The translations under genes and the position numbers were made by a program. A DNA stretch of 34,837 nucleotides from positions 1 to 34,837 of IMG/VR virus record IMGVR_UViG_3300023175_000120. The stretch is one strand, 5' to 3'. The notes under the pieces are model-generated. The model saw only the letters and a list, made by a program, of their open reading frames with translations, did not search any database and was not told where the DNA came from. Of the stretch, positions 223-34,837 are shown piece after piece; the stretch's first letter is position 1, and each line of letters opens with the position of its first letter. The DNA comes from a virus. Taxonomy: Duplodnaviria > Caudoviricetes.

Positions 223-225
223 AAA

Positions 226-3200
226 ATGCAAAAGACAAACTTAAATGTATCCCCATACTATGATGACTTTACAGAAAGTAAAGACTTTCATAGAGTTTTA
301 TTCAGACCAGGCTTTTCTGTTCAAGCAAGAGAGTTAACACAACTCCAAAGCATATTACAGAATCAAATTGAAAGACATGGTCGTCATGTTTTCAAAGAAG
401 GCACATTAGTAATACCTGGCGCTATCGGTTTTACAGATGATTACTATGCTGTAAAATTACAATCACAATATCAATCAAATGATATATCAGGATACATTGA
501 CCAGTATGTCGGTAAAATTATTACTGGTACTTCATCTGGTGTAAAAGCACAAGTCATTCAAGCAGTTGCAGCTACAACAGATGACCCAATTACTTTATAT
601 GTAAAATATGTTTCAACTGGTAGTGATAATGTCACAACAGTATTTGCAGACGGAGAAAATATATCAGCAGATGATGTTATTAGTTCTTTTGGTGCAAATA
701 TTGATAGTGCAGTTTTACAAGCATCAGATGCTACTGCAACTGGCTCATCTGCAAACATTCAAGAGGGTGTTTATTTTGTTCGTGGTAATTTTGTTAGAGT
801 TGCAGAACAAAGACTTATTTTAGACAAGTATACAAACACTCCATCTTATAGAGTTGGTTTATCAATTTCAGAAACTTTAGAAACTCCAGAAGAAGATAGT
901 TCATTGTTAGACAATGCAGCTGGTTCTACAAATGAAAACGCAAAGGGTGCTCATAGATTAAAGATGACTTTAACTTTAGCAAAACTTGCTTTAGATTCAA
1001 CTGCTGATGAAAACTTTGTTGAATTAATGAGAATTAGTAATGGTGTATTACAAGAGAAAGCAAGAAACACAGAATATTCTGTTCTTGGTGAAACTCTTGC
1101 AAGAAGAACATATGATGAATCTGGTGATTACACAGTAAAAGAATTTGGTGTTAGAATTAGAGAAACATTAAATGACGGATTAAATGATGGTGTTTACAAT
1201 ACAGGTATAACAACTGATAGTGGTAATACTGCATCAGATGATTTTCTAACAGTAGAATTATCGCCTGGTAAAGCATATGTTAAAGGTTACGAAATAGAAA
1301 CAGTCGGCCCTACATTTATTGATGTTCCTAAACCTAGAGAAGTAGAATCTCATAATGCAGCTGTAACTCCAGTTGAAGTTGGTAATTATGTTCTTGCAAC
1401 AAACATGAACAATATACCACAAATTTCACCTGAAATATCTGGACAAATAGATGATCCATATAAAGAGATTAGATTATTTGATACTTTAAATGCAGCTCAA
1501 GGTTCTTCAAACGGAACACAAATTGGTGTTGCTCGTGCAAGAGCAATCGAACATCATTCTGGTAATACAGGATCAAACTTACTTGCATCATCATCTACAA
1601 CAGATACACAATTTAAGGTTTATCTTTTTGACCTTCGTATGTTTACAACTATCACTATGTCACTAGCTGCTGATTCTGGTGAATTAGATGAGGGTGATAA
1701 AGTTACAGGTGTAAATACAGGTGCATATGGATTTGTTAAATCTGCAAGTGGTACAACATTACAATTAACATCAGTTGTTGGTAATTTTTCTTCTGGAGAA
1801 AATCTTAAATCAACTGGTTCATCTAGAGCAGATGATATTATACAAAATGGTTCTACAAATATAGAAGTTGATAGTGTAGTAACACAAGACTTTAGTAAAG
1901 TAAAACAGTTATTTTCTGCTGATACTGATACTAACTTTACAGCAGATTTAGTTTTAGAAAATGAATTTTCACTTTCTGGAACACTAACTGCAACATCTGG
2001 ATCATCAACTGTTAATGGTTTTGGTACATCATTCTTAACAGAGCTTCGTGTAGGAGATATTATCAATATTCCTGGCGTTGGTGATGTATTAATTGATACA
2101 ATAACAGATGATGATACTTTGGACATAGTTGGAACTGCTGGTGCAACTGCAACATCAGTTCCTGTAGTAAGAAAGCGTTCAAAGATTAATGACCAGAATA
2201 GAAATATTCTTTTAAGAAAATTACAAAAGAATACTATTAAAACATTAAAGACAGAAGCTAATACTGGTCTTTCTGATACAACAGTAGTTGTAAGGAGAGG
2301 ATTTACACAAGTAACAAACGCATCTGGTGAATTAACAATAACAGCAGGTGCAAATGAAACATTTAATTCAGTAACAAATACTGATTATGTTGTTGCAATT
2401 CAATCAGGTGGTGCATCTGGTGCTGGTGATATTGTTAATGTTGATAATATTACTGTTGCAGGTGCAGGTACAAACTCTTTAACTTTAACAAGTGCATCTA
2501 TATTTGGAAGTACCTGTACTGTTAATGTTATTGCAACATTAACAAGAACATCTGTTAATGAAAAAACAAAAACTAGAAATCGTATGCACCTTATTGAAGT
2601 AGACAATGATGGTGTTGGTGGTGGTGTAGAGTATGGAACATCTGCACACCATAAAGATATTTCATTAGGTGTTGCTGATGTTTATAAATTACATGGTGTA
2701 TTTGATTCTTTAGATACAACAGATCCTGTCTTACCTCAATGGACTGTTTCAGGTATCGTTGGAACATTTACAAAAGGTGAAAAGATTACTGGTGGTACAT
2801 CTGGTGCAATTGCAACAATTATAAATCCAACATCACCAATTACTTTTATTACTTTAAATGAAACTGCATTTAGTTCTGCTGAAACAATTACTGGTGCAGA
2901 GAGTGGTGCAACTGCAACACTTGGAACATTCACAGAAGGTTCTAGAAATATTACAAATGATTTTGTTCTTGATACAGGACAAAGAGATAACTTTTACGAT
3001 ATTGCGAGATTAACAAGAAAACCAACTGCAACTACTCCATTAGGAAAATTACTAATTGTGTGTGATTATTTTACACACGGTGCTGGTGATTTCTTTACAG
3101 TAGATTCATATGCAGCTATTGATTATAAAGAGATACCAGTTTATAGTGCAACTCGTATTGATCCTGAAGCACCACAACCAAGTGGTGAATATGATTTAAG

Positions 3201-6200
3201 AGATACAGTTGATTTTAGACCAAGAGTTGCTGATATATCGTCATCAAGCACTAGCAACTATTCTAGTCAAGGTCAAACAGTATATAGAATAGATGATTAC
3301 TCATTTAACTTTACATCAAGAAGTTATACAGGAAATGGTTCATCTACTGTAAACATTCCAAAAGATAATTCTAGTTTTCAGTATGACTTTGAAAACTATC
3401 TTGCAAGAATTGATTTCTTATTCTTAACACCAGAGGGTGATTTTAAAGTTATACAAGGTGCTCCTGCTGAACAACCAGAGCCACCAAAAACATTAGATAC
3501 TGCTATGACATTAGCAAAAATAAATTTAAATCCATATGTGATTCAATTATCTGATGCTTCTCATACTACATTTAATAATAAACGATATACTATGAAAGAC
3601 ATTGGTAATCTTGAATCAAGAATTAATAATATGGAATATTATACTGCATTAAATCTTTTAGAGAAAGATGCAGAATCTTTACAGATACAAGATTCAAATG
3701 GTCTTGATAGATTCAAGTCTGGATTTTTAGTTGATAATTGTGCAGGTCACAATACTGGTGATGTTAAACACCCTGACTATCGTGTCGCAATGGATATGGA
3801 AAACAAAGAAATGCGACCAAAGTATTATATGAAGGGTATTTCATTATCAGAAGAAAACTTAACTGATGCAGATAGAACAAATGACAATTATCAAAAGACT
3901 GGTGACATTCTAACATTACCATATACACATACAGTTACTGCATCACAAGTTTATGCAACTAGAGTTGAAAACTTAAATCCAGTTTTATCATTTGCATGGA
4001 CTGGTATTTGTAAACTAACACCATCAGGTGATAGTTGGTTTGAAACTGAAAGAGCTCCTGATTTAATTATTAATAAAGAAGGTAATTTTGATACTGTTCT
4101 TGCAGAGAATGTAAACTCACTTGGAACAGTTTGGAACGCATGGCAAACACAATGGACAGGATTCCATGCAACAAGTACAACGAAATTTAAAGAAAAGAGT
4201 TGGGCAAGAAGAAGGCAACAAGTTCCATATAGACCAATAATAGAAAGAAGTGTTGGAACAGAAACTGGTAGAAAAACTCGTTCAGGTATTGAAACTGCAA
4301 TCGTTACTCAAATAGATTACGAATCATTAGGCGATAGAATTATTGCTCGTGCATTAATACCATTCTGTCGTGCAGTAAATATTTCATTTAGTGCAACTGG
4401 TATGAAACCTCTTACAAAAGTTTATCCTTTCTTTGATAAACAAGCAATTAGTGCATATGTTACACCTACTGGTGGTTCACTTGGTGGGGATTTAGTTACA
4501 GATGCAGCTGGTTCAGTATCAGGAACATTTGCATTACCTGATCCTAAAGTTACTGGTAATCCTAAATTTAGAACAGGAGAAAGAAACTTTAGATTGACAT
4601 CTTCAGAAACTAATGTTCAAGTTCCAGACCCTGAAACATTTGCACAAGCAATTTTCTCTGCAACTGGTATTTTAAATACAATTCAAGAATCTATTGTTGC
4701 AACAAGAAATGCAAGAATTGAAGTTAGACGAGTTACAGAAAGAAGAAATGTAAATAGAAATGTAACTAGAGATAGAATCGTTGGGTGGTGGGATCCGCTA
4801 GCTCAATCATTTATGCCTCAACAAGAAGGTGGTGAGTTCTTAACTAAAGTTGATATTTTCTTCTCACAAAAAGATGATAACATTCCAGTTACTTGTCAGA
4901 TTCGTGAAATGCAAAATGGTTATCCAACAACTAAAGTTGTTCCAAATGGAAGTAAAACTTTATTACCTGCTGATGTTAGTACATCTAATGATGCAACTGT
5001 AGCTACAACATTTACATTTGACGAACCAGTCTATGTGAAGAATGGTGTAGAACATTGTATTGTATTATTCACAGATTCAGTAAAATATCTTGCATGGATT
5101 TCTAGAATGGGTGAATTAGATGTTGGTGGTAGTAGATTAGTTTCAGAACAACCATATCTTGGTGTATTATTTAAATCCCAGAATAACACAACATGGAGTG
5201 CATACGATTTAGAAGATTTGAAGTTTAACTTATATCGTGCAAAATTTGATACATCAAAACAAGCAAGTATCACATTAATAAATGATGCACTACCTGTTAA
5301 AACACTAGAAACAAATCCAGTTAGAGTATTCAATGGTTCTAATGTGCTTAAGATAAAACACAGAGATCATAATATGCACTCAATAACAAATAATGTTACA
5401 ATTTCTGGTGTTGTTTCTGAAGGTATTACAACAACATTAAATGGTGCTGTATCAATAGGTGCTACATCATTAACAATAAATGGAACAAGTGATTTTAATG
5501 ATGGTGCTATGGAGATAAAAATTAATGATGAAGTATTGTTAGGTACTCTTTCTGGTGGATCAACTTTCACTTTAAGTAGTCCTTCAGCTACTGCTTCTGC
5601 TCATTCAGATAGTGATACTGTTGAATTACATCAAGTCAAAGGAATACCTTTATCAGAAATTAATAAGACACATACTGCAATAGGTAATATTGGTATTGAC
5701 TATTACACAATTACTACTACAACATCTGGAACATCAGATGGAACAGTTGGTGGTTCAAGTGTTACTGCAACAGAAAATGCACAGATTGATAGTATTCAAA
5801 TGGCAGTTCCTACTATTGAATTCCCAGATACAACATTGACTTGTAAACTTCGTACAACAAGTTCAACATCAGTTAGTGGTGCTCAAACATCATTTCAGTT
5901 AGCCGCAGCTGCAAGTGCAGAAACAGTTCCAATAAATGATAATTATTATTTTGAAAATCCAAGAATGGTTTGTTCAACAATTAATGAAACAAATGAGTTA
6001 TCAGGTTCTAAATCATTCTTCTCAACATTTACTATGACATCAACTAAAGATAACTTATCACCAGTTATTGATTTAGATAGAAAAGTTGCAATTTGTGTTG
6101 CAAACAGATTAGACAATATTGATAGTTCAGCAAATTACTATCCTTCAGATGAGTATATCGGCCCTGAAGAACCAGATGGTGATAAGAACGAAGCAATCTA

Positions 6201-6543
6201 CTGTACAAGAAAAGTTACATTAAAGAATCCTGCAACTGCAATTAAAGTTTTATTTGATGCAGTTAAGTTTAATAGTGCAGAGATTCAAGTAATGTATAAG
6301 ATACTTCGTTCAGATGATGCTTCAGATTTTGATGAATTAGGTTGGAATTATTTTAATACTACTGGTGTTCCAGATACAACAGTAAACTCATCAGCAAATC
6401 TTTATGATTTTGTTGAAAGAGAATTTACTGCAAACGATTTATCAGAGTTTATTTCTTTTGCAATTAAGATTCGTATGCAAGGAACAAATTCTGCTGAACC
6501 ACCAAGAATTAAAAACATAAGAGCGATTGCATTGGCAACATAA
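226..6543 (+). CDS. Large VrlC-like virion structural protein (baseplate-associated)
   Basis: 2105 aa. N-terminus TNLNVSPYYDDF..FHRVLFRPG.SVQARELTQLQSILQNQIE; internal LARRTYDESGDY, RYTMKDIG.LE.RI, DPLAQSF; ends PPRIKNIRAIALA. Directly follows gp8, as in marine T4-like phages. Confidence 0.85.
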   Translation: MQKTNLNVSPYYDDFTESKDFHRVLFRPGFSVQARELTQLQSILQNQIERHGRHVFKEGTLVIPGAIGFTDDYYAVKLQSQYQSNDISGYIDQYVGKIITGTSSGVKAQVIQAVAATTDDPITLYVKYVSTGSDNVTTVFADGENISADDVISSFGANIDSAVLQASDATATGSSANIQEGVYFVRGNFVRVAEQRLILDKYTNTPSYRVGLSISETLETPEEDSSLLDNAAGSTNENAKGAHRLKMTLTLAKLALDSTADENFVELMRISNGVLQEKARNTEYSVLGETLARRTYDESGDYTVKEFGVRIRETLNDGLNDGVYNTGITTDSGNTASDDFLTVELSPGKAYVKGYEIETVGPTFIDVPKPREVESHNAAVTPVEVGNYVLATNMNNIPQISPEISGQIDDPYKEIRLFDTLNAAQGSSNGTQIGVARARAIEHHSGNTGSNLLASSSTTDTQFKVYLFDLRMFTTITMSLAADSGELDEGDKVTGVNTGAYGFVKSASGTTLQLTSVVGNFSSGENLKSTGSSRADDIIQNGSTNIEVDSVVTQDFSKVKQLFSADTDTNFTADLVLENEFSLSGTLTATSGSSTVNGFGTSFLTELRVGDIINIPGVGDVLIDTITDDDTLDIVGTAGATATSVPVVRKRSKINDQNRNILLRKLQKNTIKTLKTEANTGLSDTTVVVRRGFTQVTNASGELTITAGANETFNSVTNTDYVVAIQSGGASGAGDIVNVDNITVAGAGTNSLTLTSASIFGSTCTVNVIATLTRTSVNEKTKTRNRMHLIEVDNDGVGGGVEYGTSAHHKDISLGVADVYKLHGVFDSLDTTDPVLPQWTVSGIVGTFTKGEKITGGTSGAIATIINPTSPITFITLNETAFSSAETITGAESGATATLGTFTEGSRNITNDFVLDTGQRDNFYDIARLTRKPTATTPLGKLLIVCDYFTHGAGDFFTVDSYAAIDYKEIPVYSATRIDPEAPQPSGEYDLRDTVDFRPRVADISSSSTSNYSSQGQTVYRIDDYSFNFTSRSYTGNGSSTVNIPKDNSSFQYDFENYLARIDFLFLTPEGDFKVIQGAPAEQPEPPKTLDTAMTLAKINLNPYVIQLSDASHTTFNNKRYTMKDIGNLESRINNMEYYTALNLLEKDAESLQIQDSNGLDRFKSGFLVDNCAGHNTGDVKHPDYRVAMDMENKEMRPKYYMKGISLSEENLTDADRTNDNYQKTGDILTLPYTHTVTASQVYATRVENLNPVLSFAWTGICKLTPSGDSWFETERAPDLIINKEGNFDTVLAENVNSLGTVWNAWQTQWTGFHATSTTKFKEKSWARRRQQVPYRPIIERSVGTETGRKTRSGIETAIVTQIDYESLGDRIIARALIPFCRAVNISFSATGMKPLTKVYPFFDKQAISAYVTPTGGSLGGDLVTDAAGSVSGTFALPDPKVTGNPKFRTGERNFRLTSSETNVQVPDPETFAQAIFSATGILNTIQESIVATRNARIEVRRVTERRNVNRNVTRDRIVGWWDPLAQSFMPQQEGGEFLTKVDIFFSQKDDNIPVTCQIREMQNGYPTTKVVPNGSKTLLPADVSTSNDATVATTFTFDEPVYVKNGVEHCIVLFTDSVKYLAWISRMGELDVGGSRLVSEQPYLGVLFKSQNNTTWSAYDLEDLKFNLYRAKFDTSKQASITLINDALPVKTLETNPVRVFNGSNVLKIKHRDHNMHSITNNVTISGVVSEGITTTLNGAVSIGATSLTINGTSDFNDGAMEIKINDEVLLGTLSGGSTFTLSSPSATASAHSDSDTVELHQVKGIPLSEINKTHTAIGNIGIDYYTITTTTSGTSDGTVGGSSVTATENAQIDSIQMAVPTIEFPDTTLTCKLRTTSSTSVSGAQTSFQLAAAASAETVPINDNYYFENPRMVCSTINETNELSGSKSFFSTFTMTSTKDNLSPVIDLDRKVAICVANRLDNIDSSANYYPSDEYIGPEEPDGDKNEAIYCTRKVTLKNPATAIKVLFDAVKFNSAEIQVMYKILRSDDASDFDELGWNYFNTTGVPDTTVNSSANLYDFVEREFTANDLSEFISFAIKIRMQGTNSAEPPRIKNIRAIALAT

Positions 6544-6544
6544 T

Positions 6545-6772
6545 ATGAGTGAATATCTTAAAGTAGAAAATTATCCAAAACTTGCTAGAGATGTAAATTC
6601 TAGAGGAGTTGTTAATACTGATATGAACGCATATCAAGCCGCAGTTGCAAAATCAAAAGCATTTAAAAAACAAAAAGACGAATTAAGAGATTGTGTACGA
6701 GATATAAATAATTTAAAATGTGAGATGCACGAAATAAAATCTCTTTTACTAAAATTAGTGGATAAAGAATAA
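6545..6772 (+). CDS. Small coiled-coil phage protein
   Basis: ATG at 6545 just after the upstream stop is preferred to 6527. LARDVNSRGVVNTD followed by the heptad-like DINNLKCEMHEIKSLLLKL. Confidence 0.7.
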   Translation: MSEYLKVENYPKLARDVNSRGVVNTDMNAYQAAVAKSKAFKKQKDELRDCVRDINNLKCEMHEIKSLLLKLVDKE

Positions 6773-7353
6773 TGGCAGATAGAAACGCACCAGCAACCTT
6801 TACTTTTGAACAATGGCGAACAGAATTTAATGAGCTTGCAACTGATGTAGGTGATATTGGAAATTTACCATCAACGATAAACGGTGGAGCAGTATCAGAT
6901 GTTATCGAAGCAATTACAGCATTAGAATCAGGTTTAAGTTCAGTCTTATTACCAACTGTTATTGACTTTGACGATTCAACTGGTGTTGCAAGTGAAAGAA
7001 TTAAGTTTGGTACTGATGACGATTTACAAATGTATCATGATGGTTCACACAGTTATGTTGCACATAATGGTACAGGTGATTTATTAATTGATTCAAACAA
7101 TAATCTTGAGTTAGATGTTGGTGGTAACATTGATATAGATGGTGACGGTAGTATTAGTATAGATGGTGCTTCAGGTGTTACAATTCAGTATAATAATTCA
7201 ACAAAAATAGAAGCAACAAACACAGGTGTTTCAATTACTGGTAATATAGTTGATGGTAGTGGTACTATGTCAGGTAACTTGGCATTTCCAGTAACAGGTG
7301 GTAATATTGGAACAGAGGGTTTTGCAATCGCAGTTTCTATTGCATTAGGATAA
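6772..7353 (+). CDS. Fibre-proximal structural protein
   Basis: N-terminal TFEQWRTEFNELA motif, fibre-shaft motif KFGTDDDLQMYHDGSHSY, C-terminal FAIAVSIALG. Confidence 0.65.
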   Translation: MADRNAPATFTFEQWRTEFNELATDVGDIGNLPSTINGGAVSDVIEAITALESGLSSVLLPTVIDFDDSTGVASERIKFGTDDDLQMYHDGSHSYVAHNGTGDLLIDSNNNLELDVGGNIDIDGDGSISIDGASGVTIQYNNSTKIEATNTGVSITGNIVDGSGTMSGNLAFPVTGGNIGTEGFAIAVSIALG

Positions 7354-7371
7354 TAAGGAAAGAAATAAACA

Positions 7372-7716
7372 ATGGCTAATAATTTTAAAAACGCATTTGC
7401 AACAAGTGTTTCTACAAGTTCAGGTTCACCAACAGACATTTATACTGCAAATAATGGTAGCACAGTAAACTCTATTCTGATTGAATTAGATGTTGCAAAT
7501 ACTGGTACTTCTTCTATTACTGCAACTGTTTTAATATATGATAGTAGTTCAACAAATAGTTATCATATTGTTAAAGACGCAATTATACCTGTTGGTTCAA
7601 CATTAAAAGTTGTATCTGGACAAAAGATTGTTTTAAATGGTGATGATAAAGTTCAAATTTATGCTTCTGCGGCTACAGTTGATGTAGTTGCTTCAGTTTT
7701 AGAAGATGTTACATAA
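7372..7716 (+). CDS. Small beta-rich virion protein (putative fibre connector)
   Basis: 114 aa, MANNFKN...IVKDAIIPVGSTL...KIVL..GDKV...DVVASVLE; AAGGA ribosome binding site upstream. Confidence 0.6.
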   Translation: MANNFKNAFATSVSTSSGSPTDIYTANNGSTVNSILIELDVANTGTSSITATVLIYDSSSTNSYHIVKDAIIPVGSTLKVVSGQKIVLNGDDKVQIYASAATVDVVASVLEDVT

Positions 7717-7726
7717 GGAAATTTAA

Positions 7727-8527
7727 ATGTCAAATGAATCATATATGGGTGTACCATATGTTAATCAACTTGCACCCACTTTCAAAAAAGAAGATTTTCT
7801 AGGTTCTGCACTTGCTACACACAATGGTCATGCAAATTCTAAAGTATTAGACTTACCTGTGCCTGGTTCAGTTGCAACAGGTTTATTAGTAGTAGTTGAT
7901 AATGTAGTGCAAGAACCTACTGTTGATTATACAGTTCATGAAACAGCAGACGCACAACCTAAAATTTTAAAATTTGCATCTGCACCAAGTGGTAGTGCAT
8001 CAATTTATGTGATTCATAGAGGTTATGCAAATGTAAATCAAACACCACCAACTGGTTCTGTTACTGATACAGCATTAGCTGCAAATTTAAAATCATTTAC
8101 AACAGATAGTTTTACAGGTGACGCTTCAACAACTGCATTTACTCTTTCAGAAACTCCACCTAATGCAAATTCAATTTTAGTTTCAGTTAATGGTTCTGTT
8201 CAACAATCAACTACAGATTTTTCATTGTCGAGTGCAACATTAACATTTACATCTGCACCTGCATCTGCAGCTGTTATTTTAGTAAAACATTTAGGTGTTA
8301 GAGGTGTTCTTCGTAGAGGCCCAGATTATCAATTAGATACTTTTACTGGTAACGGTTCTGATGCTGCATTTACATTATCAAATTCAATATTAACAAATAA
8401 TGCCTTTGTATATTATAATGGTACTTGTATGCAACCGACTGATGACTATACAATATCTGGTACAACATTAACATTTACATTTATACCGTTAAACAATTCA
8501 GATATTATGGTTAGATACCAGTTATAA
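7727..8527 (+). CDS. Fibre protein with three tandem ~70-aa beta repeats
   Basis: Repeated unit FTG(D/N).S..AFTLS...(L/F)V..NG..(Q)QP..D(Y/F)T.S..TLTF..AP; first copy more diverged. Confidence 0.65.
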   Translation: MSNESYMGVPYVNQLAPTFKKEDFLGSALATHNGHANSKVLDLPVPGSVATGLLVVVDNVVQEPTVDYTVHETADAQPKILKFASAPSGSASIYVIHRGYANVNQTPPTGSVTDTALAANLKSFTTDSFTGDASTTAFTLSETPPNANSILVSVNGSVQQSTTDFSLSSATLTFTSAPASAAVILVKHLGVRGVLRRGPDYQLDTFTGNGSDAAFTLSNSILTNNAFVYYNGTCMQPTDDYTISGTTLTFTFIPLNNSDIMVRYQL

Positions 8528-8530
8528 ATA
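8523..8530 (+). promoter_or_regulatory. T4-type late promoter
   Basis: Exact TATAAATA, ~20 nt upstream of ATG 8552, with AAGGA between. Confidence 0.75.
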
Positions 8531-8551
8531 AGATTAAAGGAATAAAAATTA

Positions 8552-9211: not shown

Positions 9212-9224
9212 AGGGAAAAAATAA

Positions 9225-9851: not shown

Positions 9852-9868
9852 TAAAGGAATAATAAAAT

Positions 9869-10423: not shown

Positions 10424-10435
10424 AAGGAAAAATAT

Positions 10436-10633
10436 ATGAATAGTAATAAAAGAATTTTATATCAAACAGAAGAAGGTGGAGTTGCAGTTATTGTTCCATC
10501 AGATAATTCTAGTTTAACTGTTGAAGAAATTGCAGTTAAAGATGTACCTTCAGGTAGACCATATAAGATAGTTGATGTTAGCGAAGTGCCATCAGACAGA
10601 ACATTTCGTAACGCATGGGAGTATCAAGCATGA
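10436..10633 (+). CDS. Small fibre-associated (chaperone-like) protein
   Basis: 65 aa, GGVAVIVP...IAVKDVPSG.PYKIVD..EVPSDRTFRNAW; AAGGA upstream; follows a tip gene. Confidence 0.65.
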   Translation: MNSNKRILYQTEEGGVAVIVPSDNSSLTVEEIAVKDVPSGRPYKIVDVSEVPSDRTFRNAWEYQA

Positions 10634-10881: not shown

Positions 10882-10882
10882 T

Positions 10883-26500: not shown

Positions 26501-27429
26501 ATAAATGGCATCATCTTGCAGTTACAAGAAGTAGTGGAACAGTTTATTTGTGGCAAGATGGTGTTCAAGTTGGTTCTGCTTCTGATACACAAGCATTAAA
26601 TGATAATACAGTATATCTTGGACAAGCAATCAACGGTTATCCTTTAAATGCATATATGTCAGATTTTAGAGTTGTTGTAGGAACAGCAGTTTATACATCT
26701 GCATTTACACCACCAACTTTAGCATTAACTGCTATAAGTGGTACTCAAATGTTAATAACAAGTTCTGCATCTACTGTTGCAGATGCAAGTTCAAATGCAG
26801 CTACTGTAACTGCTAATGGTACTGTAAGTTTAACAAAAGAAGTTGACCATCATACAAACATGACATTCCCTGATGATGTTACTGGAACTTTAAAATTTAG
26901 AGGTGATACCGATTATATAACTGTTACAAATCATGAAGCGATGAATTTAAGAGATCAAGATTTTACTATTGATTTCTGGTTCAAACGAGATGCAGTTAAT
27001 AGTGGAACATATGGTGATACATTTATTTGTAATGTTACTGGTACTGGTGCAATTGCACTTGCAATCAATCCATCAGGTTATACAGGTGTATCTTATAGAA
27101 ATACAGTTAGTGGAAGTTGGACAAAAGTAGGAACAGACCCAGGCGATACATACGGTAGTGTTCAAGTTGGTTTAAATAAATGGACACATTATGCAGTTGT
27201 AAGAACAGGAACAACTGGTTATCAATTTGTCAATGGTGTTCTCGCAGAAACATTTACATTTACTGGAACTATAACTGATTGGAATGGTGGTATGCACTTT
27301 AGTCATTGGCATGATGGTTATACTAGAGGCCTTATTGGAGAAATCTTTGGATTTAGAATAACAACAGGTGTTGCAAGATATACTTCAGCGTTTAGTGTTC
27401 CAACAGAACCGCCTGGAAGAAGGAATTAA
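23527..27429 (+). CDS. Adhesin-like fibre protein with four LamG/concanavalin-A-like domains
   Basis: Four repeats of (F/Y)T.E.(W/F).K ... W.H.A.(V/T)R....(Y/F/W).(N/D)G ... GY.S(D/N)FR...G.A.Y...F..PT; Ig/cadherin-like module (PTIT...ATDPE...ITWSY) before them. Confidence 0.8.
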   Translation: MAESRNKKLMRSLRNSFLDNQIEEDGDLVPNIILDTTPQLGGNLDLNGFNITGSGAIDITGAINPVYAQFVYTATANQSTFSGADDNNATLAYVAQKVLVFQNGVLLADTDDYTATNGTSIQLQSGALVNDTIQIVALSSSGGGGGGSVDLSAVAQDIIPDADNTYDLGSSSKQWAELHLAGGTFFLGGARMQTDPTTGAIAFIPKATASVPNPKGIVLSQDGKLKPVDTTGGSVSSSDFQDAANSDNSTPSTASYTNASDLPLTGVTAGTTAFVSATNRLYLFTGTGWYNIALVNNSPTITTGSPATVTLNTNGTATVLTLVATDPEEVPITWSYAVTGGSLTNGGGATATVTQSNNVFTITPTTTEAYAGTFSLTFSASDGVNTATSTGVFTLAFAFTDTNFASVVAFYDGSGVAGTHSSASFTDNSSNNFTVTSTGTTKQISTSPYYLPTGYRSVYFDGSNDDIRYTSSGVIPQPMEWLDGASDYGTYELFVKLDGTQITPSQTYTPASFGCIGGTYINFGVTNTGALRYYWWTGGSNYVDSTTTLSPNTWNHIALVRDSTTIKFYINGSLDATTQTNYAGVSWATGATGEVLYIGRGHASADADGMFKGHISNLRSSDIARYSGSSYTVPTSPFTSDANTLLLTCNDLIIADKSSNAYSLTLNDIPKVRSYYPDDITGMTTEYQPSSQGGSAYFANSGTQYLTVGSAGDFATGTGEFCFEIWFKQDVAFADYKDIWSTYDGSNGNFVHTRSNQTVIWGSEGTIRITSNDLIKLNTWYHLAIVRDSGGVIKMYLNGKAQTQTYTRSTDIPHTTNPLTLGYLAGFTRPWGGYLSDFRFVKGSAVYTSDFTPPTTPLSAITNTECLLKFGGYPLFERTGKEYLTTFNGNSEITDANYVHLRYASFYDGSGDYHTISSNSNRAIATNQDFTIETWIKVNAFTQYGHFATTYNNVGDDEDYFFRLNNTAQSWQFQLGSQNSIAVNSSTNLIQHKWHHLAVTRSSGTVYLWQDGVQVGSASDTQALNDNTVYLGQAINGYPLNAYMSDFRVVVGTAVYTSAFTPPTLALTAISGTQMLITSSASTVADASSNAATVTANGTVSLTKEVDHHTNMTFPDDVTGTLKFRGDTDYITVTNHEAMNLRDQDFTIDFWFKRDAVNSGTYGDTFICNVTGTGAIALAINPSGYTGVSYRNTVSGSWTKVGTDPGDTYGSVQVGLNKWTHYAVVRTGTTGYQFVNGVLAETFTFTGTITDWNGGMHFSHWHDGYTRGLIGEIFGFRITTGVARYTSAFSVPTEPPGRRN
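23628..23660 (+). repeat. Dispersed 33-bp identical repeat (second copy 27537-27569)
   Basis: agatacaacacctcaacttggtggtaatctaga (DTTPQLGGNLD). Confidence 0.9.
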
Positions 27430-27432
27430 TAA

Positions 27433-29442
27433 ATGGCAGAAACAAGAAATAAAAATATAGTAAAAGCTATAAGTAATGCATTAGTTCTAGGAGAGATAGA
27501 CACTACTGGTAATATTGCTGGTGGTGATTTAGATGCAGATACAACACCTCAACTTGGTGGTAATCTAGATATTAATGGTAACGATATTATTTCTCTTGCT
27601 GGTGCGAACATTGATATCTTACCACATACTTCAGGTAAGATAAATTTAGATGGTGATGGAAGTACAAGTGGTGTTAGTGTAACAGATGGTCTTATTGAAA
27701 TGCGAACATCTACTGGTAGTGTTGCGGCTATTGATATGTATTGTGAAGTTAGTAATGCACACAAAGTTACAATTAAACCACCACCTCATGCAGATTATAG
27801 TGGTAATGTAACTTTTCAACTTCCATCAAGTAATGGTACTAGTGGTTATCTTTTACAAACAGATGGTAATGGTGTAACAAGTTGGGCAGCTGCTGGTGTT
27901 ACTGGATTTGATTCTGCCGATAATACATCATCACCTAACAATACTATAAATGCAGCTTCTCTTACAGTAAATTCATCATCAACAGATGCAGATTTTGTTA
28001 TTGAACCAAAAGGTGCTGGTGCGATTTTATCTCACATACCTGGCGGTGATGCCGCTACTGGTAATAAACGAGGTGCATTTGCAATAGATTTACAACTCAA
28101 TAGAACAGATGGTACTCCTGCGGCTGGAAATGTTCCATCAGCATATGGTGCTACTATTATTGCTGGTTATGATAATAAAATAGCTGCTAGTGGTTCTGGA
28201 ACAGACAATTCTAATAGTGCAACTGTTAGTAGAGGTGCAATAATCGCTTCTACTGGTAGTACAGTTACAAGTGCTTCATCAGGTACTCAATATCAAATAA
28301 AAGAAGCTATAATAATTGGTTCAAAAGATAGTAGTCTTACATCAACTGGTGCAACATCTTATCAATCTATAATAGCAGGTGGTTCAGTTCATACGATTAA
28401 TGGTCACGATAGAGGTGGAATTTTCTCTGGTAGACAAAACACTCTAGGTAATGGTGATTATAGTACCATAGTAGGTGGTTATTTACACAATGTTAATGGT
28501 AGTTATAATAACGCCACAGCTGGTTATGACCATCAAATAGATTCTACAGCCATTTACTCATCCATAAATGCTGGTTATTTCAATGAAATAGAAGGTGATT
28601 ATACTTTCATAGGTGGTGGATATTCTCACTTTATTGATGACGGTTGTCAATATGGTGCAATAGTTGGTGGTTATAATCATACTTTAGACGGCGATTATGC
28701 TGGAATGTTTGCTGGTAGAGATAACGCTATGACATCTACTAATTCTCAATATAGTGTAATATTAGGTGGTTATGCATTATCAATAGCAGGAAATTATTCA
28801 GCTATACTTTCTGGTGTTTTAAGTGAAGTTACTGGTAATCAAGCAGCAATTGTTGGTGGTTATGACAATCATGTTTCTGACCATTACTCTGTTGTTATTG
28901 GTGGTAGAGATAACGATATAGATGGCCAAGGTTCTGTTGCTCTTGGTGGACATCATGGTTATGATCATGGAAAAAATGCTAGTGTTATAATGCCTGCTGG
29001 TATTTTTGATAATTCTTGGGATGATGGTGAAGCACAACAAAAATACAATACTGTAGCACATGAAACAACTGATGCAACACAAACTGCATTAAATACTCAC
29101 GCTGGTGATCTTACCGTTGGCAGTTCTTATTTTGCAGGTTCTTTAAATTCAAACGGCGCTTCTTTATTCAAAATAACTCTTATTGCAAATGTAACAGGTG
29201 GTGGTGATACAAAAGCATGGACATTTGAAGGTGTTTTTAAAAAAGGTTCTTTAGCTTCTTCTGTTGCATTTGTAGGAACACCTGTAAAAAATGTCATAGC
29301 ATCAGATACAGGTGCATCATCTTGGGATGCTGATGTTCAAGTAAATACTACTTATGGTGGTGTAGAAGTGGCTTGCACAGGTGCGGCTTCGACAACAATT
29401 CGTTGGGTTGCTCAAATATCACAGACACAAGTTGCATTTTAA
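27433..29442 (+). CDS. Fibre/spike protein with Gly-rich ~15-aa beta-solenoid repeats
   Basis: N-terminus related to 23527; a dozen or more repeats of (Y)S.I.(G/A)G..(N/H)...G, like trimeric adhesin beta-rolls. Confidence 0.7.
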   Translation: MAETRNKNIVKAISNALVLGEIDTTGNIAGGDLDADTTPQLGGNLDINGNDIISLAGANIDILPHTSGKINLDGDGSTSGVSVTDGLIEMRTSTGSVAAIDMYCEVSNAHKVTIKPPPHADYSGNVTFQLPSSNGTSGYLLQTDGNGVTSWAAAGVTGFDSADNTSSPNNTINAASLTVNSSSTDADFVIEPKGAGAILSHIPGGDAATGNKRGAFAIDLQLNRTDGTPAAGNVPSAYGATIIAGYDNKIAASGSGTDNSNSATVSRGAIIASTGSTVTSASSGTQYQIKEAIIIGSKDSSLTSTGATSYQSIIAGGSVHTINGHDRGGIFSGRQNTLGNGDYSTIVGGYLHNVNGSYNNATAGYDHQIDSTAIYSSINAGYFNEIEGDYTFIGGGYSHFIDDGCQYGAIVGGYNHTLDGDYAGMFAGRDNAMTSTNSQYSVILGGYALSIAGNYSAILSGVLSEVTGNQAAIVGGYDNHVSDHYSVVIGGRDNDIDGQGSVALGGHHGYDHGKNASVIMPAGIFDNSWDDGEAQQKYNTVAHETTDATQTALNTHAGDLTVGSSYFAGSLNSNGASLFKITLIANVTGGGDTKAWTFEGVFKKGSLASSVAFVGTPVKNVIASDTGASSWDADVQVNTTYGGVEVACTGAASTTIRWVAQISQTQVAF

Positions 29443-29460
29443 TTAAAAGGAAAATAAATA

Positions 29461-29754
29461 ATGGCAATACAATTAAACTTAACAGCAGAAAATACTAAAT
29501 TAAATGTTCCATTGAATTCAGTATATGCAAGAATATCTAGTTTAAGAGGAAACAAAACAACATTTGAGTACAATGTTCAAGTGTTTATAAATGAAACATC
29601 AGCAAATCCAGGCGAGGGTTTAAGAACCTCAAGACCAATTAGAGTTGATAGTTTTAGTTTTCCAATAACAGATATTGACAATACAAATATAATGGAATTT
29701 TGTTATAATCATTTGAAAACGCAAACTTTATACACAGAGGGAGTTGATGTGTAA
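29461..29754 (+). CDS. Small fibre-associated protein
   Basis: 97 aa, MAIQL...YARI...CYNHLKT...Y.EGVDV; follows the fibre gene, AAGGA upstream. Confidence 0.6.
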   Translation: MAIQLNLTAENTKLNVPLNSVYARISSLRGNKTTFEYNVQVFINETSANPGEGLRTSRPIRVDSFSFPITDIDNTNIMEFCYNHLKTQTLYTEGVDV

Positions 29755-30014
29755 TGACTATTCATTTAAAACATCAAAATGCAGGAGATGTAATTTTACA
29801 AACTGATGCAGATGGTAATTTACAGATAAATCCAGATAATACAAATGGAATAGGATCAGTAATTAGTTCAGGTGTATTGTATGAACACGCACACACAATT
29901 AGTTCAGCATATTCAATATCAAGTGGAAATAATGCAATGAGTGCTGGGCCTATCACGGTTGCAACAGGCGGTAGTGTTACAGTACCCACAGGCTCTGCAT
30001 GGACAGTAGTGTAA
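29754..30014 (+). CDS. Minimal fibre adaptor protein
   Basis: 86 aa; C-terminal half homologous to the C-terminus of 8552 (YE....I...Y.I....NAMSAGPIT......VT.P.GS.WT.V). Confidence 0.7.
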   Translation: MTIHLKHQNAGDVILQTDADGNLQINPDNTNGIGSVISSGVLYEHAHTISSAYSISSGNNAMSAGPITVATGGSVTVPTGSAWTVV

Positions 30015-30017
30015 TAT

Positions 30018-30025
30018 TATAAATA
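30018..30025 (+). promoter_or_regulatory. T4-type late promoter for neck/terminase genes
   Basis: Exact intergenic TATAAATA, then AAGGA and ATG 30046. Confidence 0.8.
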
Positions 30026-30045
30026 GAATTAAAAGGAAAAATTAA

Positions 30046-30858
30046 ATGGCTACTCCAAACACAAGAGATACATTTAAAGAATATTGTTTAAGAGCATTAG
30101 GGAAACCTGTAATTGAAATAAATGTAGACCCAGATCAGATAGACGATAGAATAGACGAAGCGTTACAATACTTTGCACAATATCACTATGATGGTATTGA
30201 GAGAATGTATCTTAAATATCAAATAACATCTGCTGACATTACACGAGCTCGTTCTAATAACAACTTAACTCAAGTTACTGATGTTGATAGTTCAACAACT
30301 GCAACATGGAAAGAAGCAAAGAATTATATACCTATTCCATCAGCAGTTATGTCTGTTGTAAAAGTTTTTCCTTTTACAGATAAAGGTATGCAAAACTTAT
30401 TTGATGTTAGATATCAATTAAGATTAAATGATTTATATGACTTCAGTTCGACATCTGTTTTACACTATCAGATGACAATGCAACATTTAGATTTTTTAGA
30501 CCATATTCTAGTAGGTGAAATACCAATAAGACATAATCAACATCAAAATAGATTATATCTTGACATGGACTGGCAGACAGTATCTGCTGATGAATATATT
30601 GTAATAGAATGTTATAGAAATTTAGACCCTGCTACATACACAGATGTATGGAATGATATTTTCTTAAAGAAGTATGCAACTCAATTAATTAAAAAACAAT
30701 GGGGTGCAAACTTATCTAAATTCCAAGGTGTGCAAATGTTAGGTGGTGTTGTTCTGAACGGTGAACAGATTTATACTCAAGCTCAAGAAGAATTAAATAA
30801 ACTAGAAGAACAAATGCAACTCGCATATGAGTTACCACCAATGCACATGATTGGATAA
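30046..30858 (+). CDS. gp13: Neck protein gp13
   Basis: YCLRALGKPVIEINV..DQIDDRIDEALQYF..YHYDG...KKQWGANLSKFQGVQMLGGVVLNG...YELPP...IG. Confidence 0.95.
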   Translation: MATPNTRDTFKEYCLRALGKPVIEINVDPDQIDDRIDEALQYFAQYHYDGIERMYLKYQITSADITRARSNNNLTQVTDVDSSTTATWKEAKNYIPIPSAVMSVVKVFPFTDKGMQNLFDVRYQLRLNDLYDFSSTSVLHYQMTMQHLDFLDHILVGEIPIRHNQHQNRLYLDMDWQTVSADEYIVIECYRNLDPATYTDVWNDIFLKKYATQLIKKQWGANLSKFQGVQMLGGVVLNGEQIYTQAQEELNKLEEQMQLAYELPPMHMIG

Positions 30859-30862
30859 TTAA

Positions 30863-31729
30863 ATGCCTACTAATGTATATTTCGACACAGGTACAAAACC
30901 AGAACAAGCACTCTATGAAGATTTAATCATAGAACAGCTTCGTATCTATGGGCAAGATGTTTACTATATTCCTAGAAACATGAATAGTGAAGATAAAGTA
31001 TTTGGTGAAGATGAATCATCTTCATTTGATGACGCATACCTGATTGAAATGTATATGGAAAATGTAGATGGTTATGAGGGAGAGAAAGAATTAATGTCTA
31101 AATTTGGTTTAGACATAAAAGATGATGCAACATTTGTTGTTGCAAGAAGAAGATGGGAACAATTCGTTTCAGTTGATAATAATTTAATTGTATCTTCAAG
31201 ACCAAACGAAGGTGATTTAATTTATTTTCCAAAAGCCTCAAAGATGTTTGAGATTACTTTTGTAGACCATGATGACCCATTTTACCAAGTACATAACTTA
31301 CCAACATATAAATTAAAGTGTAAGACATTTGAGTATGGTTCTGAACAGATTGATACTGGTATTGCAGAAGTTGATTCAATAGAAACTGATAATAGTTTAG
31401 ATCAACTTGCACATCAAGTAACATTAGAACAAACAACATTTACTGAAGAATTTAGATTAGAAAGTGGAGAAGGTTTACTTGTATTAGATGGAACAAATCC
31501 AATAGGTGCAGATACTGGTGATAATTTAATTACAGAAACACAAACACATAATGGTTCTTTATTATTAGAAAATCCAGTAGAAGGTGCAGACGCATCATAT
31601 ATAATATTAGAATCTTATGTTCTTGATTCGATAGATGAAAGAGCACAAAATGATTTATATTCAACATTAGATGATAATGTTTTAGATTTTTCTGAAACAA
31701 ACCCATTTGGAGATGCAGGGATAGATTGA
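30863..31729 (+). CDS. gp14: Neck protein gp14
   Basis: EQ.LYEDLIIE.LRIYGQDVYYIPR...SKFGL...RPNEGDLIYFP...FEITFV....PFYQ...LDFSETNPFG. Confidence 0.95.
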   Translation: MPTNVYFDTGTKPEQALYEDLIIEQLRIYGQDVYYIPRNMNSEDKVFGEDESSSFDDAYLIEMYMENVDGYEGEKELMSKFGLDIKDDATFVVARRRWEQFVSVDNNLIVSSRPNEGDLIYFPKASKMFEITFVDHDDPFYQVHNLPTYKLKCKTFEYGSEQIDTGIAEVDSIETDNSLDQLAHQVTLEQTTFTEEFRLESGEGLLVLDGTNPIGADTGDNLITETQTHNGSLLLENPVEGADASYIILESYVLDSIDERAQNDLYSTLDDNVLDFSETNPFGDAGID

Positions 31730-31730
31730 T

Positions 31731-32555
31731 ATGATAGGACAATATTTTTATAACGAAGCGACAAGAAATGTAGTAGTTGCATTTGGAACGCTTTTTAACA
31801 GAGTACAGATTGCAAAGAAAGATAGTTCTGGTAATGTAACACAGACTATGAAAGTTCCATTAGCATATGGGCCTAAACAAAAATGGTTATCAAGACTACA
31901 GGAAGACCCAAACTTAAATAAAAAAGTTGCAGTAACATTACCAAGATTAGGTTTTGAAATATCTGGTATTGAATATGATACTGCAAGAAAATTAAATAAA
32001 ATAATCAAAGTTAAGAAAAAAGTTGATGGTGTTGATTATGACCAATTAAAGTCAGGATTTATGCCTGTTCCTTATAATATCAATTTTGAATTATATGTAA
32101 TGGCAAAACAATCTGATGATGCACTACAAATCGTAGAACAAATACTACCATATTTTCAACCAGAATATACTGTAACAATGAGAGAAGTTCCAGAGTTAGA
32201 TATTATCAGAGATGTTCCTATTGTATTAAACAGTATCAACTATGAAGATAATTACGAGGGTGAATTTACAAGTAGAAGAGCTATAATTTATACAATGAGT
32301 TTTACTGCAAAGTATTTCCTATACGGCCCAATCACTTCTACAAATGTTATTCGTAGTGTTCAAGTTGACCAGTATACAGATATGCCAGTTAATACACCAA
32401 AAAGAGAACAGAGATATACAGTTGAACCAGACCCAACAAATGTTTCACCTGCTGTGTTTGATCCTAATGATGATGATAACTTTGGATTTAATGAAACTGC
32501 ATCATTCTTTGAAGATGCAAAAACATACAATCCAGTAACTGACGAAGATGAGTAA
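31731..32555 (+). CDS. gp15: Tail sheath stabiliser / tail completion protein gp15
   Basis: YFYNE..R..VVAFGTLFN...KVPLAYGPKQK...TLPRLGFE...DALQIVEQILPYFQP...FTAK.FLYGP. Confidence 0.95.
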   Translation: MIGQYFYNEATRNVVVAFGTLFNRVQIAKKDSSGNVTQTMKVPLAYGPKQKWLSRLQEDPNLNKKVAVTLPRLGFEISGIEYDTARKLNKIIKVKKKVDGVDYDQLKSGFMPVPYNINFELYVMAKQSDDALQIVEQILPYFQPEYTVTMREVPELDIIRDVPIVLNSINYEDNYEGEFTSRRAIIYTMSFTAKYFLYGPITSTNVIRSVQVDQYTDMPVNTPKREQRYTVEPDPTNVSPAVFDPNDDDNFGFNETASFFEDAKTYNPVTDEDE

Positions 32556-32967
32556 GTCAACTGAAGTCCTAGACGGAGTATTAGGTATAACTGATGTTGT
32601 AGATAATGCAATGTCTACTACTACAAAAGAAGTAGTAAAGAAACCAGTTATTGTGAAAACAAATGATGATGACATTGACAATGATTATAAGTATCAAAGA
32701 GAAAACTTTTATAATTTAGTTGAAAGAGGTCAAGACGCAATAGATGGTATTTTAGAGCTCGCAAGAGAATCTGAACACCCAAGAACATATGAGGTTGCAG
32801 GTAACTTAATAAAACAAGTTGCAGAAGTAACAGAGAAACTTGGTGATTTACAAGAGAAGATGAAAAAACTGAAAGATGTTCCTAGTAATGCACCAAAGAA
32901 TGTAACTAATGCACTTTTTGTAGGTTCTACTGCTGAATTACAAAAATTACTAAAAGGAAAGAAATAA
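32548..32967 (+). CDS. gp16: Terminase small subunit gp16
   Basis: DY.Y.RENFYNLVERGQDAIDGILELARESEHPRTYEVAG...VTNALFVGSTAELQKLLK. Confidence 0.93.
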   Translation: MSKSTEVLDGVLGITDVVDNAMSTTTKEVVKKPVIVKTNDDDIDNDYKYQRENFYNLVERGQDAIDGILELARESEHPRTYEVAGNLIKQVAEVTEKLGDLQEKMKKLKDVPSNAPKNVTNALFVGSTAELQKLLKGKK

Positions 32968-33678
32968 ATGTCAACAACCATTACAAGTACATCAATAAAT
33001 GTTAATAATGCTACTGACCCATCATCACCCTCTACTGGTGATTCATACTACAATACCACAACAAATGATTGGAAATTTTACAATGGAACTTCTTGGATAC
33101 CTTTAGAAGAAGGTGCTGTACAACAATATCCAATAGAACATCTAGGAAATTGGGAAAATAAATCACCATCACAAGGTTGGTACTGGATAAAACCGCCAGG
33201 TGCGAGTGAAGCTTTTTTCTGCGAGTATAGTGGTGGTGATTATAAGTCTACTGGTTATGGTTTTTGGAGATGGTGGAGATGTAATGATGACTATCATTCA
33301 ATTTTAAATCATCATTATAATAAAGGATATCAATGGAATGTTTTGATGGTAGAAAAAGAAAATACTGGTACATGGCAAACAGCAGGTTTTAATACCAATC
33401 AAACTTTTAATCAAAGAAATAGCACCGCCGTATCTACATCAGGTACAAGGACTGGATATAGAGTCTACTTTGGGTATGCTGGAGGTCATGGAATATATAA
33501 TACAGGTCAAAGCGTTTGTAATTGGGGTAGTTCTTCTGGTGGTTTAGGTTCAGGGTTTAATGGAAGCAATTGTGGTTCATTTCCAGATAATTTATACATG
33601 GGTACTGGTGGTGGTTCTAATACCTATGGTAGTAGAGGAGGTGTATGGTCTTTTTGGTTTAGGTGGTTAGACACATGA
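32968..33678 (+). CDS. Inserted adhesin-like protein (fibre-type N-terminus, possible fibrinogen-like head)
   Basis: DPSSPSTGDSYYNTT....KFYNGTSW fibre motif, then QGWYWIKPP....FFCEY..G; Trp/Gly/Cys-rich. Confidence 0.6.
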   Translation: MSTTITSTSINVNNATDPSSPSTGDSYYNTTTNDWKFYNGTSWIPLEEGAVQQYPIEHLGNWENKSPSQGWYWIKPPGASEAFFCEYSGGDYKSTGYGFWRWWRCNDDYHSILNHHYNKGYQWNVLMVEKENTGTWQTAGFNTNQTFNQRNSTAVSTSGTRTGYRVYFGYAGGHGIYNTGQSVCNWGSSSGGLGSGFNGSNCGSFPDNLYMGTGGGSNTYGSRGGVWSFWFRWLDT

Positions 33679-33980
33679 GTTATATTTGGCAAAATCCTAA
33701 TTTTGCACGACCACATAAGTATGATGATTATATTGATTGGTTAAATGCAGAAGATCGTACGGCATATTTAGCCGCTAAAGAAGCTACTATGGATGCAGAT
33801 TATTTTATTCTATGGAAACAAGATTTAGTAAAACAATGTCAATTGAAAAGATTTGAAGAATACCCATCTATAGAAGAACAAATGGAAATGCAGTTTAATG
33901 ATAAAGTAAATTCTACTACTACATGGGATAATGCAATTAATATGGTTAAAACTAATAACCCAAAACCAATTATTGATTAA
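33675..33980 (+). CDS. Fibre-associated chaperone-like protein
   Basis: ATGA-coupled start at 33675; R..EYPSIEEQMEM.F...I..VK..NPK is homologous to 12859. Confidence 0.7.
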   Translation: MSYIWQNPNFARPHKYDDYIDWLNAEDRTAYLAAKEATMDADYFILWKQDLVKQCQLKRFEEYPSIEEQMEMQFNDKVNSTTTWDNAINMVKTNNPKPIID

Positions 33981-33992
33981 AATGAATATATT

Positions 33993-34837
33993 ATGCAAAA
34001 TATTGACCATTATCTCGGTAATCCCCTACTAAAGAAAGCAAATGTTTCTGTCGAATGGACAGAAGAACAAATTGTTGAATTTAAAAAGTGTATGGAAAAT
34101 CCTTTACACTTTATTGAAAATTACATAAAGATTGTATCACTAGACCACGGTTTAGTTCCATTTGATATGTTTCAATTTCAAAAAGAAATGGTTGATACAA
34201 TTCACAACAATCGTTTCACAATCTGCAAACTACCTCGACAGTCAGGTAAATCTACAACATTAGTATCTTACATATTACATTATGTTGTTTTCAATGCAAA
34301 CATGAATGTAGCGATACTTGCAAACAAAGCCTCTACTGCAAGAGATATTCTTTCTCGATTACAACTTGCATATGAAAATTTACCAAAATGGTTACAACAA
34401 GGTGTAATGTCATGGAATAAAGGTTCATTAGAATTAGAAAATGGTTCTAGGGTAGTTGCATCATCTACATCATCAAGTGCAGTTCGTGGTGGTTCATACA
34501 ACATGATATTTTTAGATGAGTTCGCATTTGTTCCTAATAATGTTGCAGAAGATTTCTTTTCATCTGTATATCCTACAATATCATCTGGTAAATCTACAAA
34601 AGTTATTATTGTATCAACACCTAATGGTATGAATCTGTATTACAAACTATGGACTGATGCAGAAAACAAAAGAAACTCTTATAACATTATTGATGTACAT
34701 TGGAGTGAAGTGCCAGGCAGAGATGAGAAGTGGAAACAAGAAACTATTGCAAATACATCTGAAGAACAATTCAAAAGAGAGTTTGAATGTGAGTTTTTAG
34801 GTCTACAAACACATTAGTTGCACCACACAAGATTAAA
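33993..34837 (+). CDS. gp17: Terminase large subunit gp17, ATPase domain; frame break near 34802, 3' truncated
   Basis: YLGNPLLK, Walker A PRQSGKST, Walker B IFLDEFAF, STPNG, F.REFECEFLG. In-frame TAG at 34815-34817, but the -1 frame continues STNTLVAPHKIK to the window end. Confidence 0.93.

Follow-up and report, generated by a model that had tools for sequence, protein, structure and literature searches.

Avoidance of restriction sites and modification of bases are usually treated as alternative anti-restriction strategies. In the marine T4-like phage described here the two appear to be coupled codon by codon, with sites that cannot be removed being shifted under a modification. The stretch of DNA analysed (IMG/VR virus record IMGVR_UViG_3300023175_000120, 34,837 nucleotides) is called the window throughout. 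Each of its CCWGG sites has a G before it, a C after it or both, which gives GCC on one strand, and the phage to which it belongs encodes, outside the window, two paralogs of the predicted cytosine modifier CmoX.

Avoidance, enzymes acting at GpC[C/T] and the Cmo pathway are each already known. The closest described system is CmoA-CmoX-CmoY of Synechococcus phage S-B43 (Yang et al. 2025, PMC12783734; PDB 8YF3), for which the paper gives a measured GC target of SpCmoX, a block of HhaI and a glycine amide in virion DNA, and leaves open the specificities of 5,615 CmoX candidates. Phage C5-methyltransferase (C5-MT) and TET enzymes have a measured GpC[C/T] target and spare GpCA (Burke et al. 2021, PMC8256090). 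Coliphage CAjan carries dPreQ0 at GA and GGC (Kot et al. 2020, PMC7544227), and in marine viral genomes read by single-molecule real-time sequencing RGCY, CCNGG, GGWCC and GGHCC were the commonest modified motifs (Hiraoka et al. 2022, PMC8919816). Silent purging of restriction words has been described for virulent phages (Rusinov et al. 2018, PMC6286503). A coupling of avoidance with an overlapping modification was not found in literature searches at the level of listings.

As in S-B43, three cmo genes are adjacent in this phage, and the SPPC motif and R350 are kept. The phage adds a solo CmoX paralog, its predicted target is GCY rather than GC, and it follows a CCWGG rule that S-B43 lacks; the accessible text on S-B43 reports no genome recoding (PMC12783734). 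The GpC[C/T] target of the C5-MT and TET clusters equals the footprint read here (PMC8256090). As in the virulent phages of Rusinov et al. (2018), words are purged silently, here including ACGT, CASTG, CTNAG, GGWCC and RGATCY, but CCWGG is undepleted and shifted into one flank context; the terms 'overlap' and 'flank' are absent from the main text of that paper. The nearest cultured relative in a terminase comparison is Methylophilales phage Melnitz (85.7%). Its C5-MT and TET genes follow the DNA polymerase gene in the order pol-MT-TET-kinase, likened by gene order to clade II of Burke et al. (PMC8256090), and the accessible part of the Melnitz paper raises a methylase merely as possible protection (PMC9004378).

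CCWGG and other words in the window and around the circle

The CCWGG sites and the sole CCGG of the window are as follows.

307..34717, unstranded: 23 CCWGG, all in-frame Pro-Gly; every one is preceded by G, followed by C or both, so that one strand reads GCC
25054..25058, plus strand: CCGGC, the one CCGG present where about 10 would be expected

The preliminary description had reported this flank pattern, and its site list holds throughout: 11 sites are only G-preceded, 11 only C-followed, and one (34713) is both. The preliminary description put the flanking base at synonymous third positions of locally rare codons in nearly all cases, and this holds at all 23: TCG makes up 2%, ACG 1%, CCG 3%, GCG 4%, GTG 4%, TTG 7% and GGC 5% of the codons of its own amino acid in the window. 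The reading of the lone CCGG as CCGGC was likewise correct, and CCSGG is absent from the window.

Expectations were taken from 1000 synonymous shuffles of the window coding sequence, a null that does not reproduce the flank pattern. The total of 23 CCWGG is not depleted (22.8 ± 1.6 expected), whereas flanked sites number 23 versus 2.3 ± 1.4 expected (shuffle maximum 7) and unflanked sites 0 versus 20.5 (shuffle minimum 14), a pattern with a probability of about 10^-25 under independent sites. All nine H-CCWGG-D flank pairs are missing from the window, the non-palindromic ones included. Because Pro-Gly always spells CCNGG, no silent change can eliminate the word as long as CCGG is avoided too.

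The window was linked to the rest of its phage by contig overlaps: window to G001 (99.98% over 32 kb), G001 to G002 (99.97%), G002 to L404 (99.87% over 5.5 kb), L404 to G006 (99.87% over 4.7 kb), G006 to G008 (99.98%) and G008 to G010 (100% over 3.0 kb). G010 overlaps both the end of G008 and window positions 1-1161 (99.2%, 1.2 kb). The contigs thereby close a circle of about 141 kb of a Melnitz-related marine T4-like phage, at the level of a population and from several contigs rather than one molecule; the non-overlapping parts total 140,815 bp, and Melnitz has 141.5 kb. In 94.75 kb of this phage outside the window 40 of the 47 CCWGG are flanked (10.4 expected). The whole circle has 76 CCWGG versus 78.7 expected, showing, like the window, none of the under-representation of plain avoidance, and 7 of the 76 are unflanked where 64.7 would be expected. 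The rule is thus strong but not absolute genome-wide, and the claim that CCWGG is allowed only in the flanked form holds strictly for the window.

The flank rule extends to CTNAG, CTCTTC, CTGCAG, CCGC, GCNGC and GGNCC; these words, like CCWGG, we take to be sites of restriction enzymes. Figures for words on the circle are seen/expected.

1306..32329, unstranded: 13 GGNCC, all GGSCC, which hold GGCC (GGWCC 0 versus 12.6 expected; GGSCC 13 versus 1.4)
568..33775, unstranded: 47 GCNGC, 43 overlapping RGCY (33/35 GCWGC, 10/12 GCSGC)
9190..13315, unstranded: 3 surviving CTNAG (9190, 9793, 13311), all overlapping GCT (48 expected)
8265..20041, unstranded: 4 surviving CTGCAG, all G-preceded on one strand (GCT; about 20 expected)
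1..34837, unstranded: purged words that GCY cannot or does not rescue, namely ACGT (0 seen, 54.5 expected), CASTG (1, 27.8), GAATGC (0, 12.6) and CGCG (0, 3.8)

The 33 conforming GCWGC of the window read GCAGCY, the exceptions lying at 8363 and 28843. Plain under-representation was found in the window for ACGT, CASTG, CTNAG and GGWCC. Around the circle ACGT stands at 0/228, unflanked CTNAG at 1/170 and unflanked CTGCAG at 0/30.7, and the flanked and unflanked forms part clearly for GCTCTTC (13/9.8) versus HCTCTTC (3/49.4) and for GCCGC (51/14.9) versus HCCGCD (6/53.2). GATC is partly avoided in the window (36/99) and RGATCY is nearly gone, with 2 copies left in the window and 9/105 around the circle; no Dam gene was found. 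Of 10 surviving CATCG on the circle (99 expected), 9 adjoin a GC outside the site and have no GCY cytosine inside it. Rescue by a GC beside but outside a site was rejected as a general rule, failing for CASTG (0/5.8) and CTNAG (1/10.5).

The rescuing context is strong for GCC and partial for GCT, and GCA and GCG give no rescue. In a prior-free trinucleotide ranking of 47 contexts, whose median rescue was 0.07, GCC came out on top (122/36.4); GCT was partial (17/50.7), GCA stood at 2/58 and GCG at 5/32. Consistently, GCA-context words are purged on the circle (GCASTG 1/28.5, GCATGY 2/33, GCAGCA 8/72.6, GAATGCA 0/20), as are those with GCG (GCAGCG 1/8.2, GCGWCG 0/6.5), and GC followed by any base was therefore rejected as the motif. 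RGCY was rejected too, since TGCT and CGCT rescue CTNAG and CTCTTC, and TGCC and CGCC rescue CCWGG. The GGC/GCC motif first proposed was right in that GCC rescues and too narrow in that GCT does so too. A mutational cost as the source of GCT depletion was discarded, GCT being low in enzyme-free genomes as well (0.80-0.87 versus 0.73-0.78). Taken by themselves, the words of the window pointed to a single base pair, either the G of RGC or the C that pairs with it in GCY. For the GC target motif of the Cmo system, the footprint gives GCC over GCT without GCA or GCG, as an indirect read-out.

The cmo genes of the phage and the search for other modifiers

The cmoY-cmoX-cmoA genes lie about 26 kb past the right end of the window (chain G001-G002-L404-G006/G008), and a second cmoX lies about 15.5 kb before it (via G010/G008).

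G008 10589-11734: cmoX, the first, in cmoY-cmoX-cmoA
G008 73562-74683: cmoX, the second paralog

An HNH-type gene, cmoY, cmoX and cmoA stand in this order between regA and mazG-recA. The second cmoX follows a relocated DNA polymerase gene at 2.8 kb, and cmoA adjoins the first cmoX only. The polymerase gene itself (G008 68259-70787), which normally follows regA, stands here about 60 kb from that position in a stretch of small genes. Both CmoX paralogs carry the SPPC catalytic motif and match PF00145 above cut-off (C5-MT fold), with 60% (first) and 56% (second) identity to SpCmoX, and the first matches 8YF3 at E 4e-148. Both have Arg at the R350 position, which binds carboxy-S-adenosylmethionine (carboxy-SAM), where the Melnitz enzyme, of a related clade and 39-44% identical to the two, has Leu; among the fetched loci, 64 Leu enzymes with TET compare with 91 Arg enzymes. 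CmoA is 59% identical to SpCmoA and matches TIGR00740 at E 1e-38, below the model cut-off, and CmoY is 46% identical to SpCmoY and matches PF00733 (asparagine-synthetase-like ligase) above cut-off. For the second CmoX, structure prediction from the single sequence gave a predicted local distance difference test score of 34, too low for use.

A C5 cytosine enzyme had been the second suggestion of the preliminary description, and such a modifier is thus encoded. Its first lead, a 7-deazaguanine, found no counterpart: neither the circle nor Melnitz yielded DpdA, TGT, FolE, QueD, QueC or QueE in the searches made, one of which matched CAjan as positive control. Some family searches did not take in G010 and the 3.2-kb L404 gap, for which open reading frame (ORF) reading and tblastn were used. 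TET (PF12851), present in Melnitz, was not found in G008, G001, G002 or G006, and G010 consists of structural and small genes; in contrast to the C5-MT and TET clusters, the phage thus combines a lack of TET with Arg at the cofactor position. N4/N6 methyltransferases (PF01555, PF02086, MT-A70) were likewise not found in G008, G001, G002 or G006. The motifs of Hiraoka et al. fit selection on such words, but there they were called N4-methylcytosine at the motif itself (PMC8919816). Mom or DruA-like genes (PF25680, PF14236-like) were absent from the population contigs.

That a modification of the GC pair shaped the pattern is very probable, and that this phage makes carboxymethylcytosine, predicted to be C5-carboxymethylcytosine, is only a little less so. 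The reading that we favour, and consider reasonably probable, is that words were silently removed and protein-forced ones kept under GCC or GCT, the likely target of the phage's own CmoX. Many short restriction-type words have been lost by silent codon choice, and those imposed by Pro-Gly, Gly-Pro or Ala-Ala survive, with few exceptions, in overlap with G-C-C or G-C-T. By analogy with S-B43, CmoA would make carboxy-SAM, CmoX would move the carboxymethyl group to C5 of cytosine after replication, and CmoY would probably amidate it with glycine. Going by the footprint, both CmoX would favour GCY, a tighter target than the GC measured in S-B43. In GCCWGG the group would sit on the outer C of one strand, and the bulky base would block nucleases whose site contains the marked C. 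One marked strand appears to be enough for CCWGG, CTNAG and CTCTTC; GCNGC seems to need both, as in RGCY. Hosts with nucleases of CCNGG/CCWGG, GGNCC, CTNAG and GCNGC type would supply the selection. Of the proposal that the genome was recoded around its own modification, the overlap with a GC-centred shield and an encoded modifier are supported, and the 7-deazaguanine chemistry is not.

The footprint in relatives and the competing explanations

In raw, redundant counts, 80 gp15 loci hold 342 CCWGG with 1 unflanked, versus 371 unflanked among 505 at distant uvsW loci. In Melnitz all 68 CCWGG and all 15 CCGG are flanked. After de-duplication unflanked CCWGG stand at 2/87 in 23 TET loci and at 3/129 in four of six CmoX groups (30 loci). 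At orthologous Pro-Gly sites, whose sequences are related and not independent, 1 of 205 is bare in rule-positive loci versus 109 of 131 in rule-negative ones, and among the former the same site swaps between G before, C after and both, which argues, within the limits of relatedness, for selection on either flank rather than inherited codons. The rule is absent from HTVC008M (140 of 147 kb), Mosig (140 of 141 kb), syn9 (120 of 177 kb) and CAjan (50 of 60 kb; 37 unflanked versus 45 expected). Two further contigs bear directly on CmoX. G009, with a CmoX 82% identical, has a fully recoded cassette (unflanked CCWGG 0/14; GCAGCR 1/16, the same GCA exclusion), and G017, of a distant lineage with CmoX, CmoA and CmoY-like genes, has 0/50 unflanked; their strict rules argue that CmoX can hold the footprint. 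An enzyme-blind test of 34 long contigs gave 14 rule-positive and 20 rule-negative ones, with both CmoX-clade enzymes that were found lying in rule-positive contigs and all three contigs of 90% or higher completeness being rule-negative, although the rule-positive contigs were less than 50% complete and some have a DruA-like gene instead.

A DUF4338/DruA-like gene (phrog_19197), followed by glycosyltransferase-like genes and a Mom-family gene, occupies the place of the C5-MT cassette in some phages and goes with the GCC footprint. It stands in the slot after the DNA polymerase gene in the rule-positive G014 and G034, and also in HTVC008M.

G014 7458-8522: DUF4338/DruA-like gene or cluster
G048 85618-91066 (L728): DUF4338/DruA-like gene or cluster
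HTVC008M 99568-100659: DUF4338/DruA-like gene or cluster

The G048 cluster includes a TET-associated glycosyltransferase (TAGT above cut-off) and the Mom-family gene. In 34 de-duplicated DUF4338/DruA-like loci, unflanked CCWGG stand at 13/176, unflanked CCGG at 5/117 and GGWCC at 11/134. No paper with the term DUF4338 was among the matches listed, and PMC13219725 does not hold it.

Several observations weigh against the phage's own CmoX as the source of the footprint. SpCmoX marks GCG (PMC12783734), and GCG does not rescue here; the 5-mer ranking showed no more than partial rescue by GCT. Of the 7 unflanked CCWGG of the circle, four fall within cmoX, cmoA and the mazG gene next to them, so that the cassette seems to be young and the footprint possibly older. 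The sister group of this cmoX does not follow the rule (6/6), which again makes the cassette look recently gained. Two CmoX groups do not follow the rule (6/6; L393-395, 11/13), nor do L613 (1399-2496, 9880-11007) and L614, which have two CmoX paralogs and one CmoA. The cultured phages S-B43 (292/258) and S-CRM01 (184/194) carry CmoX without the rule as well; the enzyme is therefore not sufficient, and a host nuclease must supply the pressure. The 8 CCGG of S-B43 are all flanked, yet flanked ones are scarce too (8/51). Melnitz avoids AGCT (132/375), and HTVC008M and Mosig show weak GCC/GCT rescue without a C5-MT. In addition, 80 DUF4338/DruA-like loci without a C5-MT, TET or cmo gene carry the footprint, and G048 (148 kb, 84% complete), which lacks PF00145, shows the rule at 3/62. 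A footprint found under differing cassettes thus marks the base pair and not the chemistry. Mosig has a bias of GCNGC to RGCY (GCAGCR 16/68), and its record (MT647606.1, 1-232) is truncated within an MT-A70-type gene directly after the DNA polymerase gene, for which reason it was rejected as a clean control.

Some of these points would fit a relic, in which an earlier cassette (C5-MT and TET, or DUF4338-like) drove the recoding and later CmoX enzymes of broad GC specificity keep GCC covered without shaping the GCY boundary. Rule violations are concentrated in the cmo cassette, with 6 in about 2 kb versus 39 in 79 kb (a post-hoc count), and 8 are found in the surroundings of the second cmoX (G008 70-75 kb). 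Three cassette types occupy one slot near DNA polymerase, mazG and recA, SpCmoX marks GC broadly (PMC12783734), and the sister cmoX group is without the rule. We nevertheless regard the relic as unlikely, as the cassette of G009 is fully recoded with the same GCA exclusion, the distant G017 with Cmo genes is strict, and GCA-context sites stay purged around the circle. It is a good deal less probable that GCY is marked by an enzyme of the host, or by a phage gene that went unrecognised and is common to rule-positive phages, with the cassettes as bystanders. The span of the rule over three unrelated cassette types and the weak rescue in HTVC008M and Mosig would suit such a gene; however, of 216 population ORFs, the 8 that Melnitz and G048 also have and that six rule-negative genomes lack include none that is modifier-like (4 were family-scanned: bS21, a weak zinc ribbon and two without family), and GC targets have been measured for the enzyme families behind two of the three cassette types.

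Avoidance of longer sites (ACCWGGT, CCCWGGG) or mutational bias, with no modification at all, is highly improbable. Many words are indeed purged outright, ACGT from the whole circle, but the loss of all nine flank pairs includes non-palindromic ones, a single flank rule fits six or more unrelated cores, the AT-rich background is countered by a gain of rare GC-rich codons, and relatives exchange G before for C after at the same site. Scarcely credible is a 7-deazaguanine placed at GGC by a DpdA system. GGC is a measured preQ0 motif of CAjan (PMC7544227), where, as proposed here, a short modified motif overlaps and blocks restriction sites; and as the G of RGC pairs with the C of GCY, sequence alone does not separate the two chemistries. 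The CAjan chemistry is another one, however, its pathway genes are absent from the population contigs and Melnitz, and CAjan, without the CCWGG rule, has TCC/GGA, its measured GA motif, as top context (one core only). In CAjan 1-50000 (L465) ACCGG survives mostly in this context (69/23), a possible footprint of GA modification.

The favoured reading, silent removal with retention under a CmoX mark, predicts a GCY target for two CmoX enzymes and turns the purged words into a list of the restriction specificities of the host. Beyond it, a whole lineage of marine T4-like phages may have been recoded around the C of GCY, with three unrelated, interchangeable cassettes in one slot (C5-MT and TET; CmoX and CmoA, with or without CmoY; a DUF4338/DruA-like protein followed by glycosyltransferases), the last including an undescribed GCC modifier. 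We hold this wider view tentatively, at a little under an even chance. If true, footprints would read out modifier specificity from sequence alone. The footprint also makes a DUF4338/DruA-like phage protein a candidate new DNA modifier. The question is open to testing because cultured Melnitz obeys the rule at every site.

Gene content of the window and neighbouring regions

The window spans the structural genes of a T4-like phage as one module, running from baseplate and fibre genes to gp13-17.

226..6543, plus strand: large virion protein (left anchor)
31731..34817, plus strand: gp15 and terminase small and large subunit genes (right anchor)

Between the anchors, 6772-30014 holds about 20 fibre, chaperone and virion genes, several of which are replaced in strain G005 (blocks of 77-96%). 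In some strains a tail-fibre-like gene related to window 13156-14214 is inserted after uvsW together with small partner genes, and L166 has another insert (524 aa) before gp47.

L161 13472-13973, L404 5547-6700, L323 1-866: post-uvsW tail-fibre-like insert

Contig G008 also carries several 2-oxoglutarate/Fe(II) oxygenase genes and the following.

G008 35405-35668: ribosomal protein bS21
G008 62302-62622: cytochrome c
G008 64369-64740: Fe-S assembly protein
G008 76314-76901: PurN-like formyltransferase

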